From: Dehalococcoidia bacterium
GTDB lineage: Bacteria > Chloroflexota > Dehalococcoidia > UBA6926
Assembly: GCA_965204885.1 (NCBI GenBank)
Contig: OZ242019.1
Location: 1,127,327 to 1,191,326 of the forward strand
Reading direction: 5' to 3'
Length of the DNA stretch: 64,000 nucleotides
The position numbers were made by a program, and so were the translations under genes. Positions 3,315 through 16,003 of the stretch are shown one piece after another. The notes beneath the pieces are model-generated. The model ran no database searches and was not told the DNA's origin. It was given only the letters and a program-made list of their open reading frames with translations. Position 1 is the first letter of the stretch. Each line of letters opens with the position of its first letter.

Positions 3315-4013
3315 ATGGTACCGGTTGTGAGGATAAGCGAGGAGTCTTATGAGCGGCTTAAGAGTTGGGCGGAACCGCTTGAAGACACGGCAGAGGATGC
3401 GCTACGCAAGGTTTTGGACGCTGCTGACCAGCAACGGACTGGGCAAGAGCACCAGGAAGATGTCGTCCATGATGTGTTGGTCGCGTACGCTCCCGAAGTG
3501 AAAGCGGTCGCTGATGTCAAAACGGAAAGCAATTCGAATCCGGCTGCAATTACACCTGACAATTCGGCTGGAACCGCCGGACGGATGTATGTGTCCTTGC
3601 CGGATGAATTCAAATCTCTGGCTAAGGGTCAAGGTAGAATGAGGGGCCGGATTGCTCGCAAAGCCTATCTCGAGAGAATCGGCGTGCCGGCTATTCGGCC
3701 AGGTCAGTGGGTGCGAACCACGAATGGGCAGATGCAATATCTTGGCTATTCATCACAGAACAGCCCCGACAACTGGTTTTTTGGAGCGGACGAAGATCTG
3801 GTAGAAAGGTACCTCGCGGATAACACCCTAGCGGCCTTTGTATTCCTGTGTGGCCTGTCGGAAGACATGATTATTGCTGTACCTTTGGGTATCTCTCAGT
3901 TAGAGCAATTAATCCAGTTGGGGATCTTTTCCAAGAGCGGTGGTCAACTCAAGTTCAATATTCGTAGAGAAGCTGGCGATGTCTTCTACTTGGATGGAAG
4001 GCTGATTGAATAA
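3315..4013 (+). CDS. hypothetical protein with N-terminal ribbon-helix-helix-like segment
   Basis: Good SD (taaggaggctggagttATG); N-terminus VVRISEESYERLKSWAEPL-EDTAEDALRKVL resembles a beta-alpha-alpha RHH/Arc fold; C-terminal ~150 aa unrecognised; AT-richer than flanks. Confidence 0.5.
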   Translation: MVPVVRISEESYERLKSWAEPLEDTAEDALRKVLDAADQQRTGQEHQEDVVHDVLVAYAPEVKAVADVKTESNSNPAAITPDNSAGTAGRMYVSLPDEFKSLAKGQGRMRGRIARKAYLERIGVPAIRPGQWVRTTNGQMQYLGYSSQNSPDNWFFGADEDLVERYLADNTLAAFVFLCGLSEDMIIAVPLGISQLEQLIQLGIFSKSGGQLKFNIRREAGDVFYLDGRLIE

Positions 4014-4093
4014 TGGACGTTCTGCACCAACTCAATTGGATTGCTTTCCAGTGTTAGCCCCAACGGTTTGGTGAGGTTCGAAAAGGAGACTAA

Positions 4094-4411
4094 GTGACTA
4101 ATACTCAGCATGCTGAGCGTGTCCGGCAATCGCCGAGGCTTTCTGTCCATGCCTTGCGACGCTGCCAGCAAAGAGGAATCTCACAAGAGGTCGTGCTGTT
4201 GCTCGTGAAATATGGTGCGAAACACCGAAGCGGGGACGCCTACAGTTACAACGCTACGTCAAGAACCCATCAGCTTGCGCGTGCAGAGATCGGGCCTGAC
4301 CAACACGCCAGAATTTCAAGAGCCCTAAGTCAGTGCTACGTCATAGTCTCGTCTGACGGTTCAGTTGTGGAGACGGCCGCATGGCGTGAGCGTCATTGGA
4401 GGCGACGCTAA
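4094..4411 (+). CDS. DUF4258 domain-containing protein (putative toxin-like small protein)
   Basis: LSVHALRRCQQRGISQEVVLLLVKYG matches the DUF4258 signature region; SD aaaaggagactaagtg upstream. Confidence 0.55.
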   Translation: MTNTQHAERVRQSPRLSVHALRRCQQRGISQEVVLLLVKYGAKHRSGDAYSYNATSRTHQLARAEIGPDQHARISRALSQCYVIVSSDGSVVETAAWRERHWRRR

Positions 4412-5951: not shown

Positions 5952-6000
5952 CTTTTGTCGGCGTGAAGGCGTTAGTGTTCGGTCTGATTATCGTTTGAGT

Positions 6001-6087
6001 GGTGCCGGGGGAGGGACTCGAACCCACACTCCTTTTTGGGGAAGCGGATTTTAAGTCCGCCGCGTCTGCCATTCCGCCACCCCGGCA
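6001..6087 (-). tRNA. tRNA-Leu (anticodon TAA)
   Basis: Reverse complement gives GCCGGGG acceptor, anticodon loop CTTAAAA, long variable arm, GGTTCGAGTCC T-arm, CCA encoded. Confidence 0.85.
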
Positions 6088-6448: not shown

Positions 6449-8797
6449 TTACTTCTTGTCTTTTGACTGCTCTTTTGCCGTACCGCTAGCGCGAGCGGCT
6501 TTTCCGCTTTGCTGTCCGGCGCTGCGGCCGCGAGCGATGTGAGTCGATGTCCGATACACGTTGAAGACGCCCGGCAGATCCTCCAAACGGGATATCATCC
6601 GGCTGATTTCCGGAAGGCCGCTTGCCTCAACCGTGAGCGTTATCGTAACTGTGCCGTCCGCGTTGTGTCTATCTCGCACCCCTGTGATGTTGATGTGATC
6701 CGCCGAGACCAGCGTCGTAATATCCCGCAAGAGCCCCACACGATCCTGTGACGAAATAACGACACCGGACGGGTATTTCTGCTCGAAATCCGGCCAGGTC
6801 ACGTCCATGAGGCGCTCTGGCTCGTCCTCGTTCAGCATGTTCGTGCAGTTGCGCCGATGCACGGAAAGACCGCGATTACGGGTGATGAATCCGACGATCT
6901 CCTCGCCCGGCATCGGGCGGCAGCACGGGGCTGACCGCGCCGGCGTTGGGCCGAGTCCCTGCACGATGACCGAAAGCTCGCCACTGGACGGTCGAAGCTG
7001 GATCGTTTCCGGCTCTTCCTTTGGCGGCTGAAGCCGGACCGCAATCTGGTTGACGCCGACTTGTCCCGTTCCAAGCGCGAGGATGAATTCATCCGCCGTT
7101 TGGTAGCCGAAGAGCGTCGCCAAATGCTGCGGGTCAAGCTGCACGCCAAGCCGCCGCGCCTCCCGTTCCAGAAGCTGTCGGCCACGCGCCGTGCTTTCTG
7201 AACGCTCCTGAACACGGAACCAGTGGCGAATCTTGGATCGCGCCAACTCCGTGCGCACGTAGCCGAGATCCGGGTTCAGCCAGTCAAGGCTCGGCCCCTT
7301 TGGGCTCTTGGACGGGATGATCTCGACCGTGTCGCCGTTCTTGAGCGTGTAGCTCAACGAGACCATGCGGCCATTGACTTTCGCTCCGGCGGTTCCATAG
7401 CCGACATCCGTGTGAATGCGGAAGGCGAAGTCGATGGGTGTGGAGCCTGCCGGCAATTCTCGAATCTCGCCCCTTGGCGTGTAGACATAAACCTGGTCGA
7501 CAAGAATCTCGTGCTTCAGCTGGTCGACGAATTCCTGCGCGCCGATCACGTCACGCTGCCAGTCCAGAAGCTGCCGCAGCCACGCGATGCGCTCATCGAA
7601 CTCGCCGCCCGCCGCGCCCTCCTTGTAACGCCAGTGCGCCGCGATGCCGTATTCCGCCATCTCGTGCATGTCCGCGGTGCGTATCTGCACCTCCAGCATG
7701 TTGCCGTCCGGCGTCACCACCGTCGTGTGCAGCGATTGATAGCCGGTTTCGCGCGGGTTGGCGATGTAGTCGTCAAATTGGCCGGGCAGGGGGCGCCACA
7801 TGCCGTGGATGATGCCGAGCACGCCGTAGCAGTCCTGGACGTCCTTCACAACTACGCGGACGGCTTGCAGGTCATTGATGTCCTCAAAATCCCGCCCAAT
7901 CTCGCGGTAGCGCTCCATCTTCTGGGCGATGCTGTAGATGCTCTTTGTCCTGCCGGAAATCTCAATGTCTTTGTATCCCTGCGCCGTGAGCGTCTCCCGC
8001 AGAGCCGTCAGCGCCTCGCTGACTCCCGTCTCGAGCTCCGTCAGCCGCACGGCAACCAGGTCCGCAACACGTCGATGCCGCGCAGGCTCAAGGTGGATGA
8101 ACGCGAGGTCATTGAGTTCCGACTCGATGCTGTCGATTCCAAGCCGATGGGCGAGCGGGGCGTAGATATCCCGGGTTTCCAGGGCGATGCGGTGACGCCG
8201 ATCCGGCGCGAGGGCGTCAAGCGTCCGCATGTTGTGGAGGCGGTCGGCCAGCTTGATGAGGACGACGCGGACATCCTGCGCCATGGCGAGCAGCATCTTG
8301 CGGAGGCTCTCGGCCTGGTAAACGCTGGCCTGTGACGGGAAGGCGGCCGCCTCACCGCCTGTGCCCTGCTGCGGCTGCGCCGCGAGGCGAGACAGCTTCG
8401 TGACGCCGTCCACGAGTTCGGCGATCTCCGCGCCGAAACCCTTTCGCATCTCATCGAGCGTCATGGGCGAGTCTTCGACGACGTCATGCAGGAGCGCGGC
8501 CTGCAACGTTGGCGCGTCCAGCATTTCGATGTCCGTCAGGATGAGCGCGGTCTCAAGCGGGTGGCAGATATACGGGTCGCCGGACTTGCGGAACTGACCG
8601 TCGTGGGCGCGCTCAGCCGTATCAAACGCCTCACGGATGGCATCGATGCGCTCCGGCGGGAGCCGATGCGCCTTCAGGCGCGCTTCAAGCTCGTCGAACG
8701 CGACGCGCGCGAAACCAGCTCCTGCGCTGCCGTCGGTCGTCAGAGCCGGGGCATCCGCAGAGGCATCATCGTCTATAGCGGAATTCGCGCCAGTCAT
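6449..8797 (-). CDS. rel: bifunctional (p)ppGpp synthetase/hydrolase, RelA/SpoT family
   Basis: HD hydrolase motif (LLHDVVEDS), RelA_SpoT synthetase region, and TGS and ACT-like C-terminal regions; 782 aa. Confidence 0.9.
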   Translation of the reverse strand: MTGANSAIDDDASADAPALTTDGSAGAGFARVAFDELEARLKAHRLPPERIDAIREAFDTAERAHDGQFRKSGDPYICHPLETALILTDIEMLDAPTLQAALLHDVVEDSPMTLDEMRKGFGAEIAELVDGVTKLSRLAAQPQQGTGGEAAAFPSQASVYQAESLRKMLLAMAQDVRVVLIKLADRLHNMRTLDALAPDRRHRIALETRDIYAPLAHRLGIDSIESELNDLAFIHLEPARHRRVADLVAVRLTELETGVSEALTALRETLTAQGYKDIEISGRTKSIYSIAQKMERYREIGRDFEDINDLQAVRVVVKDVQDCYGVLGIIHGMWRPLPGQFDDYIANPRETGYQSLHTTVVTPDGNMLEVQIRTADMHEMAEYGIAAHWRYKEGAAGGEFDERIAWLRQLLDWQRDVIGAQEFVDQLKHEILVDQVYVYTPRGEIRELPAGSTPIDFAFRIHTDVGYGTAGAKVNGRMVSLSYTLKNGDTVEIIPSKSPKGPSLDWLNPDLGYVRTELARSKIRHWFRVQERSESTARGRQLLEREARRLGVQLDPQHLATLFGYQTADEFILALGTGQVGVNQIAVRLQPPKEEPETIQLRPSSGELSVIVQGLGPTPARSAPCCRPMPGEEIVGFITRNRGLSVHRRNCTNMLNEDEPERLMDVTWPDFEQKYPSGVVISSQDRVGLLRDITTLVSADHINITGVRDRHNADGTVTITLTVEASGLPEISRMISRLEDLPGVFNVYRTSTHIARGRSAGQQSGKAARASGTAKEQSKDKK

Positions 8798-8882
8798 TAT
8801 CGGTATAGTTTACCGCTTTATGGCTAGTTATCCGCTTAGGTGGGGGGAAGGAGAAAAGCGGCGTGCCTATGCAAAGGGCGGT

Positions 8883-10838
8883 TCAAGAGGCTGCGTCCAA
8901 GGTTTCGCCAAGTATTTCTTTCAGTACATACCGTTTGAATGCGTCAACACTTGTGAAGCAGCGGTAACCGGCGCTTGCGCCAACAGAGAGTGTCTCAATC
9001 CCTTCATCAAGCAGAACCGCAACAGGTTGGCTCAAGCCCTCTTGTAGGCCATTTGGCCATGCCAAATCGAATATCGCTAGTGGAGAGTCGTTTTCGGGGT
9101 CAGTGTAATCAAATCCCATTTCGCCATGTGCGAGCCCGTGAGATTCCACCCAGTCATTGAGGTTCACTAGCTCAGCCTCCTCGTCCGAGCTAGCAATCTC
9201 GCCCGGAACCTCAATCGGTTGGCTGGCCGACGGTTCCTGCGTTACCGGCGATGGCGTTGGCTCCGAACTCTCGGTGAGAGTGCTCATCAACTTATTAGTC
9301 TGGGCGGCCATTAGTTGTGCCCGCTCCTCGAGAAAGCCAGGATAATTGTCTAGGTGCCAAAGATTACGATTCGTAGGAATCCACTGTGATTCGAGTGCGC
9401 CGGGATGATTAGCGGCAACTTCTTCGAGATACTCCTGAGGATTACGATTGCTAATCTGCAGATTGCTGTCCTTTGTCAGGAAACAAAGATTGCCCAACGC
9501 ATTGACTTGGGCGCGCGAGTAACCGTGCTTATAGAGCAAGGATTTAGGAAATATGTGATGAACCTCAAGCTGATTCATTTTCCCAACATTGCCTTGCTTG
9601 AGAGGCAAACCGGTTCCCAAATCTCTACTGTCGGACATCCTCGTGAGCATATATAGAACGGGGTAAAACCTTGCGCCGAGCCCCAGACCTTCTGAAAAGT
9701 GCTGGGATTCGACTGTTGGACGATTCCAAATCCTGACACGTTCCACGAGTGACTCAAGCGGCGATTTGGTGTCATTGTCGAGTGTTGCCAGATCCTGCTC
9801 AAGCGATGTTTCTGTGTTGCCAGAGTACCGGCCCCACATACCAGCTTGGGCATAGTAGTAGAGCAGATTTCCTTGTTCGAGGGCATCCGGCGATTTATTG
9901 TATCGATCATAGAACCGTGCCATGACTGGCACTGCGTGGCGGGCAAAAAATACTCTGTCGTGATCCAGACCCAAGCGGCCATCAATCAATGCAATGATGG
10001 CATCAATTGACCTTACGGCTCTGCCAAGCCCATCCTTCACTTCTTCGGAAGACTTTTCGCTTAAATATCTGAAATCGGCTCGCCCGGTAAGGATGGAGTT
10101 GATCGACCGAAGAAGCCATACAAGGTCGAAATAGTAGCCTTTTTTATTCCACTCATCCAGTGCGTCCTTCATTCTTTCTCTAGCCTCGGGCCAACCGGCG
10201 CATATCTTCGCTAGTGCCAGATCGCCTTTAGAGAGCTTGGTGCCACCACTGTTCACGCGGTTGAAAATATCGACCACAATATCAAGATCAAGATCTTTGC
10301 TCGCCATTATCTCTATTGGCAACTCGACCTCCCGAATCCCCAAGAGGCGACTCAGACGGCCATAGATTTCAGATGTCCGAAGAGTGTCGTTCTCCGGTAA
10401 GTCAACGTGGTCGAGGTAGCTAGACCCTGCACGCATAACGTCCGTGACGTTTACCCAGAGCGGATCGTCGCGCATTCTTATCGCTTGATAAAACTCGAAC
10501 CTCTCGGTACCAACGTGGAACATTAAACCAGTGAATGTTCTTTCATCGCCGTCAAAGAATCCAGGAGGTCCTCCCCTGACAACGCCATACAATGTCGTGA
10601 CTCGCTGCTGACCATCCAGCAACAACTGCACGACGCCCGGCGGGGGTGTATTTGAGCCTCGAAAGTCCGCAGTACTTGCGGATGTCTCCCAAATGAGCAA
10701 GCCTCCCACGGGATGCTTGCGATACAGTGAATCGAACAGACTTCTAACTTGTTCTCTGTTCCATACGTAACTTCGCTGAAACTTTGGCAGACTTATTTGC
10801 CCGCTGTCGACTCGGTCAAGGATTGTGGATATCTGCAC
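8883..10838 (-). CDS. GmrSD-family type IV restriction endonuclease (DUF262 + DUF1524) with extra C-terminal domain
   Basis: N-terminal LPKFQRSYVW...LLDGQQRVTTL (DUF262/ParB-like) and EVHHIFPKS (DUF1524 His-Me finger); P/S/E-rich linker then ~100 aa tail with FDLAWPNG...VAVLLDEG; AT-rich. Confidence 0.8.
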   Translation of the reverse strand: MQISTILDRVDSGQISLPKFQRSYVWNREQVRSLFDSLYRKHPVGGLLIWETSASTADFRGSNTPPPGVVQLLLDGQQRVTTLYGVVRGGPPGFFDGDERTFTGLMFHVGTERFEFYQAIRMRDDPLWVNVTDVMRAGSSYLDHVDLPENDTLRTSEIYGRLSRLLGIREVELPIEIMASKDLDLDIVVDIFNRVNSGGTKLSKGDLALAKICAGWPEARERMKDALDEWNKKGYYFDLVWLLRSINSILTGRADFRYLSEKSSEEVKDGLGRAVRSIDAIIALIDGRLGLDHDRVFFARHAVPVMARFYDRYNKSPDALEQGNLLYYYAQAGMWGRYSGNTETSLEQDLATLDNDTKSPLESLVERVRIWNRPTVESQHFSEGLGLGARFYPVLYMLTRMSDSRDLGTGLPLKQGNVGKMNQLEVHHIFPKSLLYKHGYSRAQVNALGNLCFLTKDSNLQISNRNPQEYLEEVAANHPGALESQWIPTNRNLWHLDNYPGFLEERAQLMAAQTNKLMSTLTESSEPTPSPVTQEPSASQPIEVPGEIASSDEEAELVNLNDWVESHGLAHGEMGFDYTDPENDSPLAIFDLAWPNGLQEGLSQPVAVLLDEGIETLSVGASAGYRCFTSVDAFKRYVLKEILGETLDAAS

Positions 10839-11040
10839 GTATTCTGGTCTCCTTGATAGGCATCATGTTAGTAGATAGCGACAACCTGACTCAGCCTAAC
10901 ACGATGGTGGCTCAGCACGGAATGATGCCTAAGCAGTTTCGATTTCAGACTCTACGTGCTCCCGCAGCCGCCGCGATGTACTCATCCCAGAGGCGAGTTT
11001 CTTCTGTGGTGGTCATTGTTGAACTCCTACTTCTGGACGC

Positions 11041-13626
11041 TTATACGTCGTCTGTATGCCTCCATCTCCTCCTCGCGCCTACCAGGCCAAGCAAAAGGCC
11101 GCCGAGGAGGAGGATGTCTGCGGTGGGGGCGCCGGCGAAGCAGCCGCCGCCGGAGTCGCCTTCATCCTCGCCGTTCGTTGGGATCGTCGTTGTGCCGTCG
11201 CCGCCCGTCGTTGTGCCGGTGGCGGACGCTTCCACGGTCAGGACGCGTTCCGAAACGGTCGAAAGTTGATCGCTGTAGGCGGTGATGGAGAGGCGGTAGA
11301 GGCCGGGGACGAGCGCGGCCGTCTCACCTGCAGAGAACGGCACGGTGAACCCGCCGCCGTCCGCCGTTGCGTCGCCGGATTTGACGACATTGCCCGTCGC
11401 GGGATCCGACCACACGTAGCGGACACCCAGCTCGCCGGGGCCGTCAACGTTCACGCTTACGTCCAGCGACTGCCCGATGACGATGCCGCCGACGCTCTCC
11501 GGTTCAAGGCTGATGGGCTCCGCCGCGCCGAAGTGCCAGTCGCCCGGCTTGAACGGGTAGTTCTCATCGCGGAATGCCTTGAGTTCGGCGAACTGCGCGG
11601 GCGGATCGAATCGCTCCAGGTAGAACGGCCCGTTGCTGATCACCATCAGGCTGCGCTCATCGAACCACGACTGCGCGGCGCGATAGCGCTCAAGCGCCTC
11701 CTGCTCCGTCACGAGGGCCTGCCCGCCGATGGTCAGCGCCGCCATGGGCACGAAGCCATCGCGCTCGAACTGCCCAAGCGCGCGGTCGACGGTGCGGGCG
11801 TCGCGGTCCTGCACCAGGCTGAGCCAGGGCACGCCGAATCGCTGCGCGGACGTATCGCTGTAGGCGGCGCGGCGCTGGTTGAACACCACGTCATCCATGG
11901 CGGCGAGCACCTCCCACGGCATGGTCATGCCGCCGGGGACGGCGTATTCCGCGATGTAGTCGTCCACGAAGTGCCAGTAATCGACGTAGACCTCGATACG
12001 GTTTTCATCCAGCACGCGGAAGCCGCGGATGGTGTCCAACAGCGGCTTGGCGGTTGTTGAGATGGCAAACTCGACCTGCGACTTCTCCGGCCCGTAAACC
12101 ATGTCAAAGGTCTGGTAGATGTCATAGACAAGGTCGGCCATCGTGATCTGCTGGCCGTGATGCCACGGGGCCTGGAAGAACTTGCTGTAGTCGAACGTGA
12201 CCTTTGAGGTGGCCTCCACGCCATCGCCCACGCTCGCCCACTCTCCTGCATCCGCGTCCCATCGCTGGACGTTGGAGGGCACGGGCATCTTTGCGCCCGG
12301 CCCCGCCGTTTCCACCTGGTAGTTGGCGCGCATGGGGATGGGCAGGCCGGTGAACGGATGTCGCGTCATTGCCGGATCGGCCAGGTTGCGCCACACGTCG
12401 GCGCTGTAGACATCGCCAAAGCCGGAGACAGGGTTCCATGTGCTGCGCTCTGTCCATACCCACAGATGGCCGACGGTGAGCGTGTCCTGATCCGGCACAT
12501 ATGCCTCACGGAACGTCCACTGGAGCTTCGGTCCCGCCGCCACGTCCTCCGTCACTCCGACGATGTTCGAGTTGGCGGGGAATGTTGTCAGGATTGTCGC
12601 GAGCCAGACGCGAACGGACTCTTCGACGGACAAGCGCGTGACCTCCTGGTACAGCGCGTCGCGCTCCTCGCGGTCGTTAAAATCGCCGCGGAATATGCGT
12701 TGTCCGAGGTCATCGATTCGCGCATTCTCGTACTGCCAGAAGCCGGTTTCCTGCCAGCCGGGCATGCTGCCCAGCCACGGCGCGGTCATCTGGTTGATGG
12801 TGGCGGAGTCATAGCGTTCCGCCGCGCCGCGCCCCCATCCTTCCGTGTAGGCGTGCCACTCAAACAGTTGCGGATCAGTGCTGTAAACGGTGAGGATGGC
12901 CGGGGCGAACTGGTGATAGATGGGAGCAATCAGGAATCCCGCCTGTTCCAACTCGGCGCGGATCAGGTCACCCACCTCGCGGCGCTCATCCTCCACGCGG
13001 ATGATGAACCGCAGGCGGATCGGCTCGTCGTTGTAATTCCACGCGCCGTCCACCATCGTTGCGCCAGCCGCCGTCATGGCGTCGGCGATGGCTGCACGTG
13101 CCCGTTCCGGGTCATAGGACAGGTCCTGCCGCGCCAGCATCTCCGCAACGACCGTGTAATCAAAGTCGAACGGGTTGACGTGCGTTTCCATGGGACGGGC
13201 GAGGCCCTTGTAGATTTCCTGCGTGATGAACTCGCGGTTGACGAGGTGTTGGACCGCGCGCCGCACCTCCGGCAGGGAGAACGGGTTGAGCTGCCCCTCC
13301 GGCGCGGGCGCCGGGTTCAGGATGAGGGAGATCGTCGATGCCGGCGCCTCGTACAACTCGATGGAACCATCGTCGCGCAGGGCCTGCGCCGCGTCCGTCT
13401 TGAGATTGAAGATGTACATGTCCATCTCATCTCGCTGGATCTCCTGCGGCGCGAGGTCAACGTTGAATGAGCGGTAGTGGAGCGTATCCACGGCTGGCCC
13501 GGGCAGGTCATGCGGCGGGCGGTAGTCATCACCGCTCTGGGCGAGCACTGCGCCGCTCCCGGCCACGAGGCCGGCTACCAGCACAAGACCGAGGATGAGC
13601 GGGAGACGGAGCTTAAAATTACGCAT
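11041..13626 (-). CDS. secreted solute-binding-protein-like (family 5-like) protein with C-terminal Cys-containing sorting-like tail
   Basis: Signal peptide MRNFKLRLPLILGLVLVAGLVAGSGAVLA; start ATG at 13626 lies 4 nt after the upstream stop; tail ...DSGGGCFAGAPTADILLLGGLLLGLVGARRRWR. Confidence 0.55.
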   Translation of the reverse strand: MRNFKLRLPLILGLVLVAGLVAGSGAVLAQSGDDYRPPHDLPGPAVDTLHYRSFNVDLAPQEIQRDEMDMYIFNLKTDAAQALRDDGSIELYEAPASTISLILNPAPAPEGQLNPFSLPEVRRAVQHLVNREFITQEIYKGLARPMETHVNPFDFDYTVVAEMLARQDLSYDPERARAAIADAMTAAGATMVDGAWNYNDEPIRLRFIIRVEDERREVGDLIRAELEQAGFLIAPIYHQFAPAILTVYSTDPQLFEWHAYTEGWGRGAAERYDSATINQMTAPWLGSMPGWQETGFWQYENARIDDLGQRIFRGDFNDREERDALYQEVTRLSVEESVRVWLATILTTFPANSNIVGVTEDVAAGPKLQWTFREAYVPDQDTLTVGHLWVWTERSTWNPVSGFGDVYSADVWRNLADPAMTRHPFTGLPIPMRANYQVETAGPGAKMPVPSNVQRWDADAGEWASVGDGVEATSKVTFDYSKFFQAPWHHGQQITMADLVYDIYQTFDMVYGPEKSQVEFAISTTAKPLLDTIRGFRVLDENRIEVYVDYWHFVDDYIAEYAVPGGMTMPWEVLAAMDDVVFNQRRAAYSDTSAQRFGVPWLSLVQDRDARTVDRALGQFERDGFVPMAALTIGGQALVTEQEALERYRAAQSWFDERSLMVISNGPFYLERFDPPAQFAELKAFRDENYPFKPGDWHFGAAEPISLEPESVGGIVIGQSLDVSVNVDGPGELGVRYVWSDPATGNVVKSGDATADGGGFTVPFSAGETAALVPGLYRLSITAYSDQLSTVSERVLTVEASATGTTTGGDGTTTIPTNGEDEGDSGGGCFAGAPTADILLLGGLLLGLVGARRRWRHTDDV

Positions 13627-16003
13627 CGGACTCGACCTCGTCATTGTTGTTCGCCCGGCGGCGTCTGCGCACGTTGAGCTGCACCGCGCCGATGATGCCC
13701 AATGCAATCAACCCCACCAACGCCATGTCCGCCGTCGCGTTGCCCGTGCCGCACCCGCCGGACGCACCATTATCATCTGTTTCGCCGGACTCGATACGCT
13801 CCAGCGCCTCCTGGATGCTGGCCAGGGCCTCTGAACTCAACGCAGCCTTGATGTCCGCGATGTCCGCGGCGGTCTCCTGAAGATTATCGAAGCCGAACTC
13901 ATTGTAGAAGGACGCCGTCGCGGAGTTGCCGGAGGCGTCGAAAACGGCGACGCTCTGCGGCCCCTCGCCGGCAGTCGGGAAGAAGAGCTGCGTCGTGAAT
14001 CGCCCCTCATCGTTCGACTCGATGGTGGATACGAGAACGCCGCTGACGAGGATGAAGATGTCCTGATCGGCCTGGAAATTGAACCCCTGGATAGTCACCG
14101 TTGTGGCGGACGCGCCGCGCGCCGGTGAGAGGAAGATCGACGGGCTGGGCATCTGGCGCATCCGCGCAAACCCGATCTTCTGGTTCGTGCCCTGGAACTC
14201 GCCGAGACGGGTGTCAGGCCATACGAGGTACACGTCCTCATCAGTGGCAGCTATTGCCATGTAGTCACCAATGAACTGACCACCGGGGAATCCGAAGTTG
14301 GGGTTGGACGCGGAGTCCGTGACGCGGGAGTTGATGCTGAACGACTCCCCGTTGTCCTCGGACACGGCGTAGTAAATGTGATAGCGAAGGTCGATTCCCG
14401 GATCGTCCCGCGTATCCGCCCACATGACGTGAACCTTGCCGTCCGGTGAAACATCAATCGATGGGAAGAACTGGATGCCGGACGTGCGGTCATCGTTGAT
14501 TCGGAGTGGTGGGCGGCTCCACGTCCGCCCCTCGTCCATGGAACGGATAAACATCACGTCCGCGTCATCAGACGGGTCGCCGGACGGCGCGGCGGAAAAC
14601 GTCACGTACAGTTCCTCATTCGGCCCGACGGCTATTCGTGAGAAGGCTGACCCCCAGAATCGGTAGAAGCTGCTTCTTGGCGAGAAGCCCAACTCCAGGT
14701 AGCTAGCGGCCTGCCGCCCGCTTTCGAACGTGTCGCCCCCGTCCTCGGACTTCGCGACGTACATCTGTGCCAGCCCTTCGAACGGGCCGTCGTCAGAGGA
14801 GTCCATCCACGAAACGTAAACGGTTCCGTCGTCATGCGTCGCCACATAGGAGCCCTGGACGATGCGCTTCAGGCTCTCAATGACCTGCCCGCCGGGGATT
14901 GTGTCCGGCGATTGCAGCGCCCCAGGATTTTCCTGAATGGTCACCTGCTCCGCGCCGCCAAACTCGAAGACCTGCCGGATGATCGGGCTGACGACAACAG
15001 GATCGGACCAAGTGATGCCGCCGTCCTCTGAGCTAACCACTTCGATGGTCGTCTGAAGGACGGGATCGCTGAGGAAGGCGAGCTCATCCGTATAGCGGAT
15101 GCGGTACGTCGTGTTGAAGTGGGTGTAGGAGATGTAGATGATGTCCGAGTCCGGGTCATCCGGGTTTGGGCCCACGGCCAGCCACGGCTTGTCCAGGAAC
15201 CCGAGAGATATGGTTCCACGGGTTCGGCCAAGCGAATCAATCTCAAACTCGGATGTTACTCCGCTCCTGACCGCCGGCGTGCCCTGCGTCCACGTGAATC
15301 CGCCGTCACTGGACGAACTCAACGCCATGCTGGAGACAACCGCCGACCCCAACAGGTTGCCGACCGTGAACTCTTCGATGTCAAGGGAGATGAAGGTGTT
15401 GTAGATGGAACCGTCCCGGTCGAATGCCAGAACAGGGTCGCCGCCCGCACCGAGTTCCTCGCGCGGGCGCTTGATCACCGCAGGCCCCTCCCACGTCACG
15501 CCGCCGTCATAGGTCACGTACATGGTGGTGCCCGGGAAGTTGTAGTCGATCATGCCGGCGACGATGTGGTCCGGGTCGTCCGGATCGACGGCCAGATGCG
15601 GCTCCGTCTGGAGCGGGGCCGCGCTGAAATCCGTCGGGATCAGGATGTTGCGGCTGAAACGCGCCGAGGGATCGCGGTAGGGGACGAGAACGCCGCCCTG
15701 CGAATCAGGCGCGCCCTGCGCGGAGGCGACGGGGCCTGTCTGCCCCTCGCCGGCGATACTTTCCGAGTCCGCGTCGATGCCCTGGGCCATCAGCGAGACA
15801 CGCCCGGACAGGTACCGGGCAGTCTGATCTCTAAAAGCGAGCACATCAGGCGCAAGGTACGGATAGTCGGGTGTGAGGATGCCCGGAGAGCCTGTCGTCT
15901 GCCGCTCGCCCTCCTGCGCTCCGGCAAAGCCTGCCGGGGAGACAGCTAACACGATCACAGAGATAGCCGTTAGTACTAGTAGTCGGGTCAGATTCCGCTG
16001 CAT
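13619..16003 (-). CDS. secreted BNR/Asp-box repeat protein (sialidase-fold-like) with C-terminal sorting-like tail
   Basis: Signal peptide; at least six S-x-D-x-G-x-T-W/F repeats (YDGGVTWEG, SSDGGFTWTQG, SEDGGITWSDP, SEDGGDTFESG, SMDEGRTWSRP, SEDNGESFS); tail ...GASGGCGTGNATADMALVGLIALGIIGAVQLNVRRRRR. Confidence 0.7.
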   Translation of the reverse strand: MQRNLTRLLVLTAISVIVLAVSPAGFAGAQEGERQTTGSPGILTPDYPYLAPDVLAFRDQTARYLSGRVSLMAQGIDADSESIAGEGQTGPVASAQGAPDSQGGVLVPYRDPSARFSRNILIPTDFSAAPLQTEPHLAVDPDDPDHIVAGMIDYNFPGTTMYVTYDGGVTWEGPAVIKRPREELGAGGDPVLAFDRDGSIYNTFISLDIEEFTVGNLLGSAVVSSMALSSSSDGGFTWTQGTPAVRSGVTSEFEIDSLGRTRGTISLGFLDKPWLAVGPNPDDPDSDIIYISYTHFNTTYRIRYTDELAFLSDPVLQTTIEVVSSEDGGITWSDPVVVSPIIRQVFEFGGAEQVTIQENPGALQSPDTIPGGQVIESLKRIVQGSYVATHDDGTVYVSWMDSSDDGPFEGLAQMYVAKSEDGGDTFESGRQAASYLELGFSPRSSFYRFWGSAFSRIAVGPNEELYVTFSAAPSGDPSDDADVMFIRSMDEGRTWSRPPLRINDDRTSGIQFFPSIDVSPDGKVHVMWADTRDDPGIDLRYHIYYAVSEDNGESFSINSRVTDSASNPNFGFPGGQFIGDYMAIAATDEDVYLVWPDTRLGEFQGTNQKIGFARMRQMPSPSIFLSPARGASATTVTIQGFNFQADQDIFILVSGVLVSTIESNDEGRFTTQLFFPTAGEGPQSVAVFDASGNSATASFYNEFGFDNLQETAADIADIKAALSSEALASIQEALERIESGETDDNGASGGCGTGNATADMALVGLIALGIIGAVQLNVRRRRRANNNDEVESDA

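Follow-up and report, generated by a model that had tools for sequence, protein, structure and literature searches.

A BrxU-clade GmrSD restriction enzyme in a Dehalococcoidia bacterium with a conserved, acidic C-terminal domain of predicted nuclease fold

A stretch of 64,000 nucleotides from a Dehalococcoidia bacterium (contig OZ242019.1 of assembly GCA_965204885.1, positions 1,127,327 to 1,191,326), referred to here in its whole length as the window, contains a complete open reading frame (ORF) at positions 8883..10838 of the reverse strand. It encodes a GmrSD/BrxU-type Type IV restriction enzyme of 651 amino acids (followed by a stop codon) with an extra C-terminal domain, referred to here as the tail. 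The protein is a known kind of enzyme, a BrxU-clade GmrSD, in a new and widespread architectural variant: its core is ordinary, and C-terminal add-ons to GmrSD proteins are already known. The reading proposed here is that a BrxU-clade GmrSD enzyme is carried on a cassette in a genomic hotspot and that its tail is a nuclease-derived, non-catalytic regulatory module. As one joint claim, this is plausible rather than probable; it is preferred, with modest confidence, to the tail being a second nuclease or a sensor.

The ORF begins with a GTG start codon, and its N-terminus, MQISTILDRVDSG, pairs residue by residue with the N-termini of homologs in the alignment, so the start codon is correctly placed. 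An exact-sequence look-up of the protein returned no record. The original prediction, made from the letters of the sequence alone, described a 651-amino acid GmrSD-type protein, and all of the motifs that it quoted are present: FQRSYVW (residues 20–26), DGQQRVTTL (75–83) and HHIFPKS (427–433) and, within the tail, FDLAWPNG (590–597) and VAVLLDEG (606–613).

The N-terminal part of the enzyme is a DUF262 or GmrSD_N NTPase domain (residues 3–212; 10203..10832, reverse strand; Pfam PF03235, E 3.9e-26), which scores 92.8 bits and is thus above the Pfam gathering cutoff of 33.2. In addition to FQRSYVW, it contains SLFDS (residues 33–37) and DGQQR (residues 75–79; window 10602–10616), of which S37, D75, G76, Q77, Q78 and R79 are invariant in the 31 homologs compared. 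This is followed by a middle or linker region that is predicted to be all-helical (residues 213–418; 9585..10202, reverse strand) and by the DUF1524 or GmrSD_C HNH nuclease region (residues 419–519; 9282..9584, reverse strand). The assignment of the latter comes from a Pfam PF07510 match to residues 419–469 (E 5.4e-4; 20.3 bits, just below the 23-bit cutoff) and from the best match among the PADLOC models, the HEC-05 model PDLC04151 (E 6.4e-45), in which residues 114–519, including the helical region, align to positions 173–594 of 600. Three further HEC-05 models in PADLOC match the protein (E 4e-23 to 3e-12), and the PADLOC match to SspE is weak (E 4e-5). The HNH motif, HHIFPK, is at residues 427–432 (window 9543–9560); H427, H428, P431, N446, N450 and N459 are invariant in the same homologs, i.e., the HNH motif and its following Asn are present.

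Payne et al. put the identity between their HEC-05 representative and BrxU at 99.2%, and BrxU (PDB 7p9k) is the only PDB sequence that the window protein matches, over residues 3–56 only. Mutagenesis in the BrxU paper revealed that binding of nucleotide, its hydrolysis and the cleavage of DNA depend on the motifs RLFDS, DGQQR and DHIYP; the HNH-type motif, which is DHIYP in BrxU, is EHICP in HEC-06. The three BrxU motifs are represented in the window protein by SLFDS, DGQQR and HHIFP (residues 427–431). Judged from its sequence, the core is a standard GmrSD enzyme of the BrxU clade that seems to be intact, and we infer the enzymology of the whole protein, as well as the regulatory role of the tail discussed below. 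One homolog (P0004, 719 amino acids) has an internal tandem duplication of about 68 amino acids in the DUF262 region (alignment columns 216–283), the duplicated segment being GIVKLLLDGQQRMTSLYGV...DPLWIDVTDL.

The tail comprises residues 551–645 (8904..9188, reverse strand). It has no match among Pfam, NCBIfam or PADLOC models, and a profile search of its alignment against PDB sequences gave nothing below E 0.08; these blanks would suit a neutral or unstructured extension, or an artefact of annotation or assembly. However, the distribution of the tail argues strongly against this. A database search with the window protein found more than 7,400 homologs, the named sources of which include Caldilineae, Amaricoccus, Hyphomonas, Alcanivorax, Gammaproteobacteria and Phycisphaerales. 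The best 120 homologs are about 645–655 amino acids long and 54–92% identical to the window protein over 99–100% of the query, and every one of the 120 carries the tail, with 48–89% identity within it. An exhaustive search with a profile of the tail only (A2) against 1.84 billion cluster representatives gave matches to 660 clusters at E<=1e-3 and to 402 at E<=1e-10. In the best 150 of these clusters, which are at most 50% identical to one another and on which the conservation percentages in this text are based, the signature positions are 91–99% conserved: E553 (93%), W563 (98%), G572 (99%), D591 (97%), L592 (95%), W594 (97%), P595 (97%), G597 (99%), Q599 (96%), P605 (98%), L609 (95%), E612 (95%), G624 (93%), F628 (93%) and Y637 (91%). 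In both the window and a metagenomic relative (L001, described below), the tail is read in frame with the rest of one ORF, and its fold is predicted with confidence in two independent runs. The neutral or artefactual explanation is thus effectively refuted. From these alignments, the tail defines a widespread GmrSD subfamily spanning several phyla, rather than a one-off fusion; the original suggestion that the fusion is unusual was not borne out by the survey.

In some members of the family, a further module follows the tail, either Schlafen/AlbA_2 (P0183, P0152) or DUF5655 (P0235, P0188), which places the acidic nuclease-fold domain in the interior of these proteins. The possibility that the tail also exists as a protein by itself was rejected: the short matches are overwhelmingly fragments from metagenomes, and the residues upstream of the tail in them match the C-terminus of GmrSD or the linker. 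A few tail-bearing predicted proteins (P0155, P0172, P0179, P0162, P0178 and P0223) have flanking sequence that is unrelated to GmrSD, e.g., an N-terminal DEAD-helicase stub in P0155, a stretch of 216 amino acids without a match to Pfam or the GmrSD model in P0172 and a Ser/Thr kinase downstream in P0223; these contexts may reflect genuine alternative architectures, chimeric contigs or fused gene calls.

An AlphaFold2 (AF2) model of the tail, built from the tail alignment, has a predicted local distance difference test score (pLDDT) of 84.3 and a predicted template modelling score (pTM) of 0.72. The full-length AF2 model (pLDDT 66 and pTM 0.49 overall) is too poor for a whole-protein fold search or for judging how the tail docks on the body, yet it reproduces the tail at pLDDT 80–91. 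The tail consists of a helix (551–566), three strands (573–579, 586–594 and 606–608), a helix (614–622), a strand (626–628) and a final helix (631–642); in the numbering of the tail model, the first six elements are H12–27, E34–40, E47–55, E67–69, H75–84 and E87–89, and they are the same in the full-length model. This order, α-β-β-β-α-β (then α), is the topology of the restriction-endonuclease-like core. The closest structural neighbours of the tail model are VRR-NUC, the DUF559 protein 3hrl, I-Bth0305I, Vsr and Hjc. Foldseek found nothing significant for the tail in the PDB (best E 0.37, for NucS, DrdV and Can2) or among viral models (best E 0.07–0.1, TM-score about 0.5); the top of the viral list, at these non-significant scores, comprises restriction endonuclease, DUF559, VRR-NUC, Vsr, DUF2726 and Holliday-junction resolvase entries. 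On the strength of the models, the tail very probably belongs, as a minimal version, to the restriction-endonuclease-like, or PD-(D/E)xK, fold class; its placement in any particular nuclease family is unsupported. An unstructured and poorly conserved extension, which the original prediction had named as the outcome that would count against it, is contradicted by the confident AF2 fold and by about 15 positions that are 91–99% conserved.

Between DUF1524 and the tail lies a flexible linker rich in Pro, Ser and Glu (residues 520–550; 9189..9281, reverse strand), which has a net charge of -5 and is variable across homologs. Residues 524–541 have pLDDT <50 in the full-length model and are thus predicted to be disordered. 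As the tail folds reproducibly and this segment does not, the tail is a domain in its own right, held by a flexible tether, and the description of a Pro/Ser/Glu-rich linker leading from DUF1524 to a domain of about 100 amino acids stands. In the family as a whole, the segment that follows DUF1524, LLHGDTRW, is nearly invariant (H523, G524 and W528 are present in at least 90% of homologs), and in the clade of the window protein (the window protein and P0001–P0003) it is replaced by a stretch rich in Pro, Ser, Thr and Glu (residues 520–548; window 9195–9281). By alignment, the linker of this clade is atypical for the family.

A domain of nuclease fold could be an active nuclease. According to this explanation, the tail is a second nuclease or nickase, from a Vsr/DUF559-like branch of PD-(D/E)xK, which cuts the second strand or another substrate alongside the HNH domain, with metal bound by E553, D591 and E612 and with Q599, R626 or the Lys/Arg at position 635 perhaps replacing the missing Lys. 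The three acidic residues are 93–97% conserved and are situated on helix 1, on strand 2 and at the end of strand 3, respectively, which are elements that hold catalytic acids in this superfamily. The nearest structural neighbours listed above are active minimal nucleases; by eye, the tail stretches xxFDLAWP and VAVLL(N/D)EG resemble YIVDFMC and LIVEADGG of 3hrl; and there are conserved basic residues at R626 (Lys or Arg in 98%) and position 635 (Lys or Arg in 87%). However, the catalytic signature D...(D/E)-x-K is incomplete: D591 and E612 are kept, but position 614 is variable (Pro in 22%, Ala in 18%) and has no Lys. The DUF559 motif, D (on strand 2)...E-x-D-G-x-x-H, is likewise absent from the tail: in either register, the strand-3 Glu of DUF559 falls on a conserved, hydrophobic Leu (L609 or L610) with no His after it.

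Nor was homology to DUF559, Vsr or any other nuclease family found at the level of sequence. The window tail and 50 further tails gave no Pfam match at E<=10 to DUF559 (PF04480), Vsr (PF03852) or a nuclease family, whereas 3hrl, used as a positive control, was recognised as a DUF559 member (PF04480, E 1.3e-44); the same tails did not match DUF4268 (PF14088). The Pfam check that had been suggested for the tail therefore identified neither a nuclease nor a sensor family. Matches to EACC1 in 6 of the 50 tails were sporadic (E>=0.006) and were taken as noise. Alignment of the tail profile A2 by hhalign gave a probability of 0.2% with the sequence of 3hrl and of 0.14% with a purpose-built DUF559 alignment (A3); this is a weak negative, because both profiles are shallow (effective number of sequences, Neff, about 2.4). 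A tblastn search for DUF559 genes in the retrieved DNA found none. Thus, of the proposed likeness to Vsr and DUF559, the local motif resemblance and the fold class remain, but family or profile homology was not detected and the ExDGxxH motif is absent.

The charge of the tail also bears on this question. The window tail has a net charge of -15 and an isoelectric point (pI) of 4.05; over 120 homologs, the mean net charge is -13.0 (range -6 to -18) with a pI of 4.08, and over 98 representative clusters the mean is -13.2. For the body of these proteins the pI is about 6.7, and DUF559 comparators have pI values of 5.9 to 10.2. Thirteen columns of the tail are conserved as Asp or Glu, whereas only two are strongly basic (R626 and the Lys/Arg at 635). 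A domain of 95 residues with a net charge of -13 is ill suited to binding DNA, and such strong acidity does not sit well with a nuclease that binds DNA autonomously. The conserved acids belong to a much larger conserved acidic surface, and the E553/D591/E612 “triad” may simply be part of it. All considered, a second active nuclease is rather unlikely.

The absence of the canonical Lys, together with the acidity, is the reason for favouring a non-catalytic regulatory module. By analogy with BrxU, the DUF262 domain would bind and hydrolyse nucleotide, and the DUF1524 HNH domain would cut modified phage DNA in an NTP-dependent manner. The disordered, acidic linker of about 30 amino acids would tether the independently folding domain of about 95 amino acids. 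The BrxU dimer has an electropositive cleft of about 21 Å, of which the DUF262 domains form the floor and the DUF1524 domains the walls, and it cycles between dimer and monomer on ATP binding [see the BrxU paper]. The tethered acidic tail might dock on such an electropositive DNA cleft of the enzyme dimer as an intramolecular plug or brake; alternatively, it might provide an interface for protein–protein interaction or oligomerisation. The more specific proposal, that the tail is a DNA-mimicking autoinhibitory plug which is displaced by nucleotide or modified phage DNA, or else a sensor of, or decoy for, the anti-restriction proteins of phages, is speculative and, as it stands, unlikely.

A further explanation casts the tail as a module for specificity or sensing, in which the loop between strands 2 and 3 (W594-P-x-G-x-Q599-x-x-L-S-x-P605) reads a ligand and thereby sets the target range or triggers activation. 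The ligand could be a modified base or sugar (e.g., glucosylated hydroxymethylcytosine), a nucleotide signal or a protein of the phage, for instance an anti-restriction factor. This 11-residue loop, with its invariant Trp, Gln and Ser/Pro, is more conserved than any other stretch of the tail, and Trp together with Gln, Asp or Glu is typical of carbohydrate-binding sites. The AlbA_2 and DUF5655 modules that follow the tail in some members are associated with nucleic acids and suggest a modular C-terminal sensing region; moreover, the BrxU paper saw no pocket for recognition of the modification. The non-catalytic regulatory module is preferred, and a sensor is judged to be quite unlikely.

The original interpretation is thus supported in part, in that the tail is a real, conserved domain of nuclease fold, but neither the Vsr/DUF559 homology nor the rarity of the fusion was upheld. 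BrxU (from Escherichia fergusonii pEFER) and HEC-05 have the same single-chain Type IV architecture of DUF262, helical linker and DUF1524 (HNH), with the motifs (R)LFDS, DGQQR and (D/H)HI(Y/F)P in common with the window protein. They differ in the HNH motif, in which the window protein has His (HHIFP) in place of the Asp of BrxU (DHIYP), and in length: BrxU (587 amino acids) and the HEC-05 model stop near residue 519–525, in line with the original remark that classical GmrSD, BrxU and SspE proteins lack such an ending, whereas the window protein has about 130 extra residues including the folded domain of 95. Classical GmrSD (Eco94GmrSD or EcoCT GmrSD) and SspE share the GmrSD_N plus GmrSD_C architecture and the presumed NTP-stimulated cleavage of modified DNA, and lack such a tail. 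The C-terminal add-ons that have been described for GmrSD are DUF4268, DUF4357 and DNA_binding_1, together with unassigned “white boxes” [see Machnicka et al. 2015], and AlbA_2 [see Jablonska et al. 2017]; the tail matches none of the named families, of which DUF4268 is the commonest, and a literature search found no description of it. Compared with minimal PD-(D/E)xK nucleases (VRR-NUC 4qbn, DUF559 3hrl/NGO0050, Vsr 1cw0, RAP domains and I-Bth0305I), the tail is 10–15% identical, has a pI of about 4.1 rather than near-neutral to basic, has no (D/E)xK Lys and is tethered to an HNH enzyme.

The gene is situated, as originally described, between a relA/spoT-like gene (6449..8797, reverse strand) and a gene for a secreted protein, which is an SBP_bac_5-type solute-binding protein (SBP) of 888 amino acids (11041..13707, reverse strand); both flanking genes are outside the cassette. 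The DNA that holds the gene is indeed AT-richer, with a GC content of 0.50–0.53 over 9001–11000 compared with 0.61–0.67 on either side. The gene itself has a GC content of 0.509 and a GC content at third codon positions (GC3) of 0.53, and the neighbouring genes have 0.63–0.65 and 0.77–0.82, respectively. The listed ORFs of the SBP gene and of the BNR-like gene upstream of it (13619–16003) overlap by 89 bp (13619–13707), and the true start of the SBP gene is probably downstream of the TTG listed for its ORF.

The RelA neighbour, with 87–93% identity to nine metagenome-assembled genomes, puts the window in a lineage of uncultured Dehalococcoidia, and the SBP–relA interval (window 8798–11040) was compared in 11 relatives, L001–L011. 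Two metagenomic relatives, L001 and L002, whose flanks are 81–93% identical, have an 81%-identical GmrSD-plus-tail gene in the same slot, which is likewise low in GC (0.52 compared with 0.61–0.63). The gene is absent from the nine closer relatives (flanks 88–95% identical). Among these, L009 and L004 have an effectively empty slot of 129 and 214 bp, respectively; the slot is filled by HNH_2 endonuclease genes in L005, L006, L007, L008 and L011, with HigB/HigA-like and HepT/MNT-like toxin–antitoxin pairs in addition in L008; and in L010 it holds an N6_N4 methylase–HNH fusion and an unknown ORF of 207 amino acids. The HNH_2-domain proteins are of two types (349–376 and 412–421 amino acids) with unannotated N-terminal domains, and the slot of L003 contains a thioesterase-like ORF of 149 amino acids. 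The L002 gene (9637–11590) is apparently frameshifted, with residues 1–92 and 76–651 in different frames and a called length of 530 amino acids, and is followed (11712–12272) by a C-terminal fragment of a McrBC-family protein (186 amino acids); this suggests either a defence locus in decay or an error of assembly.

Homology to the empty sites of L004 and L009 resumes, with the conserved leader of the relA/spoT-like gene, no more than 15 bp from the stop codon of GmrSD. On the other side, about 200 bp 5′ of the GmrSD start (10839..11040, reverse strand) are specific to the insertion, being absent from both empty sites, and are presumed to be the promoter or leader of the cassette; a sigma-70 promoter scan of this region gave no consensus match, which is uninformative for Chloroflexota. 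No direct or inverted repeats beyond chance flank the cassette, and its surroundings have no target-site duplication, integrase or adjacent tRNA gene, the nearest being a tRNA-Leu gene at 6000–6086. The cargo is a compact, low-GC cassette of about 2.15 kb, comprising the presumed promoter and the ORF, in a defence and toxin–antitoxin hotspot; its GC content is 0.51, compared with 0.62–0.65. Low GC content and a slot whose content varies among the 11 relatives were found, rather than uniform composition and synteny. The proposed description as an insertion is thus correct, but not as one that is both recent and private to this genome; L001 and L002 share the gene in the slot.

Elsewhere, members of the family are solitary among housekeeping genes, sometimes adjoining PIN toxin–antitoxin pairs or a transposase. 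An exception is the Amaricoccus homolog P0055, which is inside a Type I restriction–modification operon (HsdM-HsdS-GmrSD-HsdR) beside Hachiman, just as BrxU-like genes have been reported embedded in restriction–modification loci. In the window, the gene stands alone between SBP and relA, in contrast to the BrxU/HEC-05 genes found in BREX, Hma or Type I restriction–modification loci, a setting that is typical of them but not strictly defining. A second low-GC patch in the window (3315–4411, forward strand; GC 0.50–0.58) contains an ORF of 232 amino acids with no Pfam match and an ORF of 105 amino acids with a weak match to DUF4258 (E 1e-3, below cutoff). The equivalent position has a NucS-like gene in L001 and an Mrr_N protein plus an ORF of 104 amino acids in L002; the patch is perhaps another variable or defence slot.

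Nucleases of the GmrSD/BrxU type are widespread in defence against phage, and it matters how they recognise their targets and avoid damage to self. A conserved tail that is absent from the Pfam, NCBIfam and PADLOC libraries used and combines a nuclease fold with a DNA-repelling charge offers a handle on regulation or specificity, and it justifies a new domain family entry. The SBP–relA slot is a clean defence-gene hotspot in uncultured Dehalococcoidia, a group in which defence systems have been little characterised. If the plug or decoy proposal were true, the tail would be a built-in safety catch of a type that has not been described for any GmrSD, BrxU or SspE enzyme.

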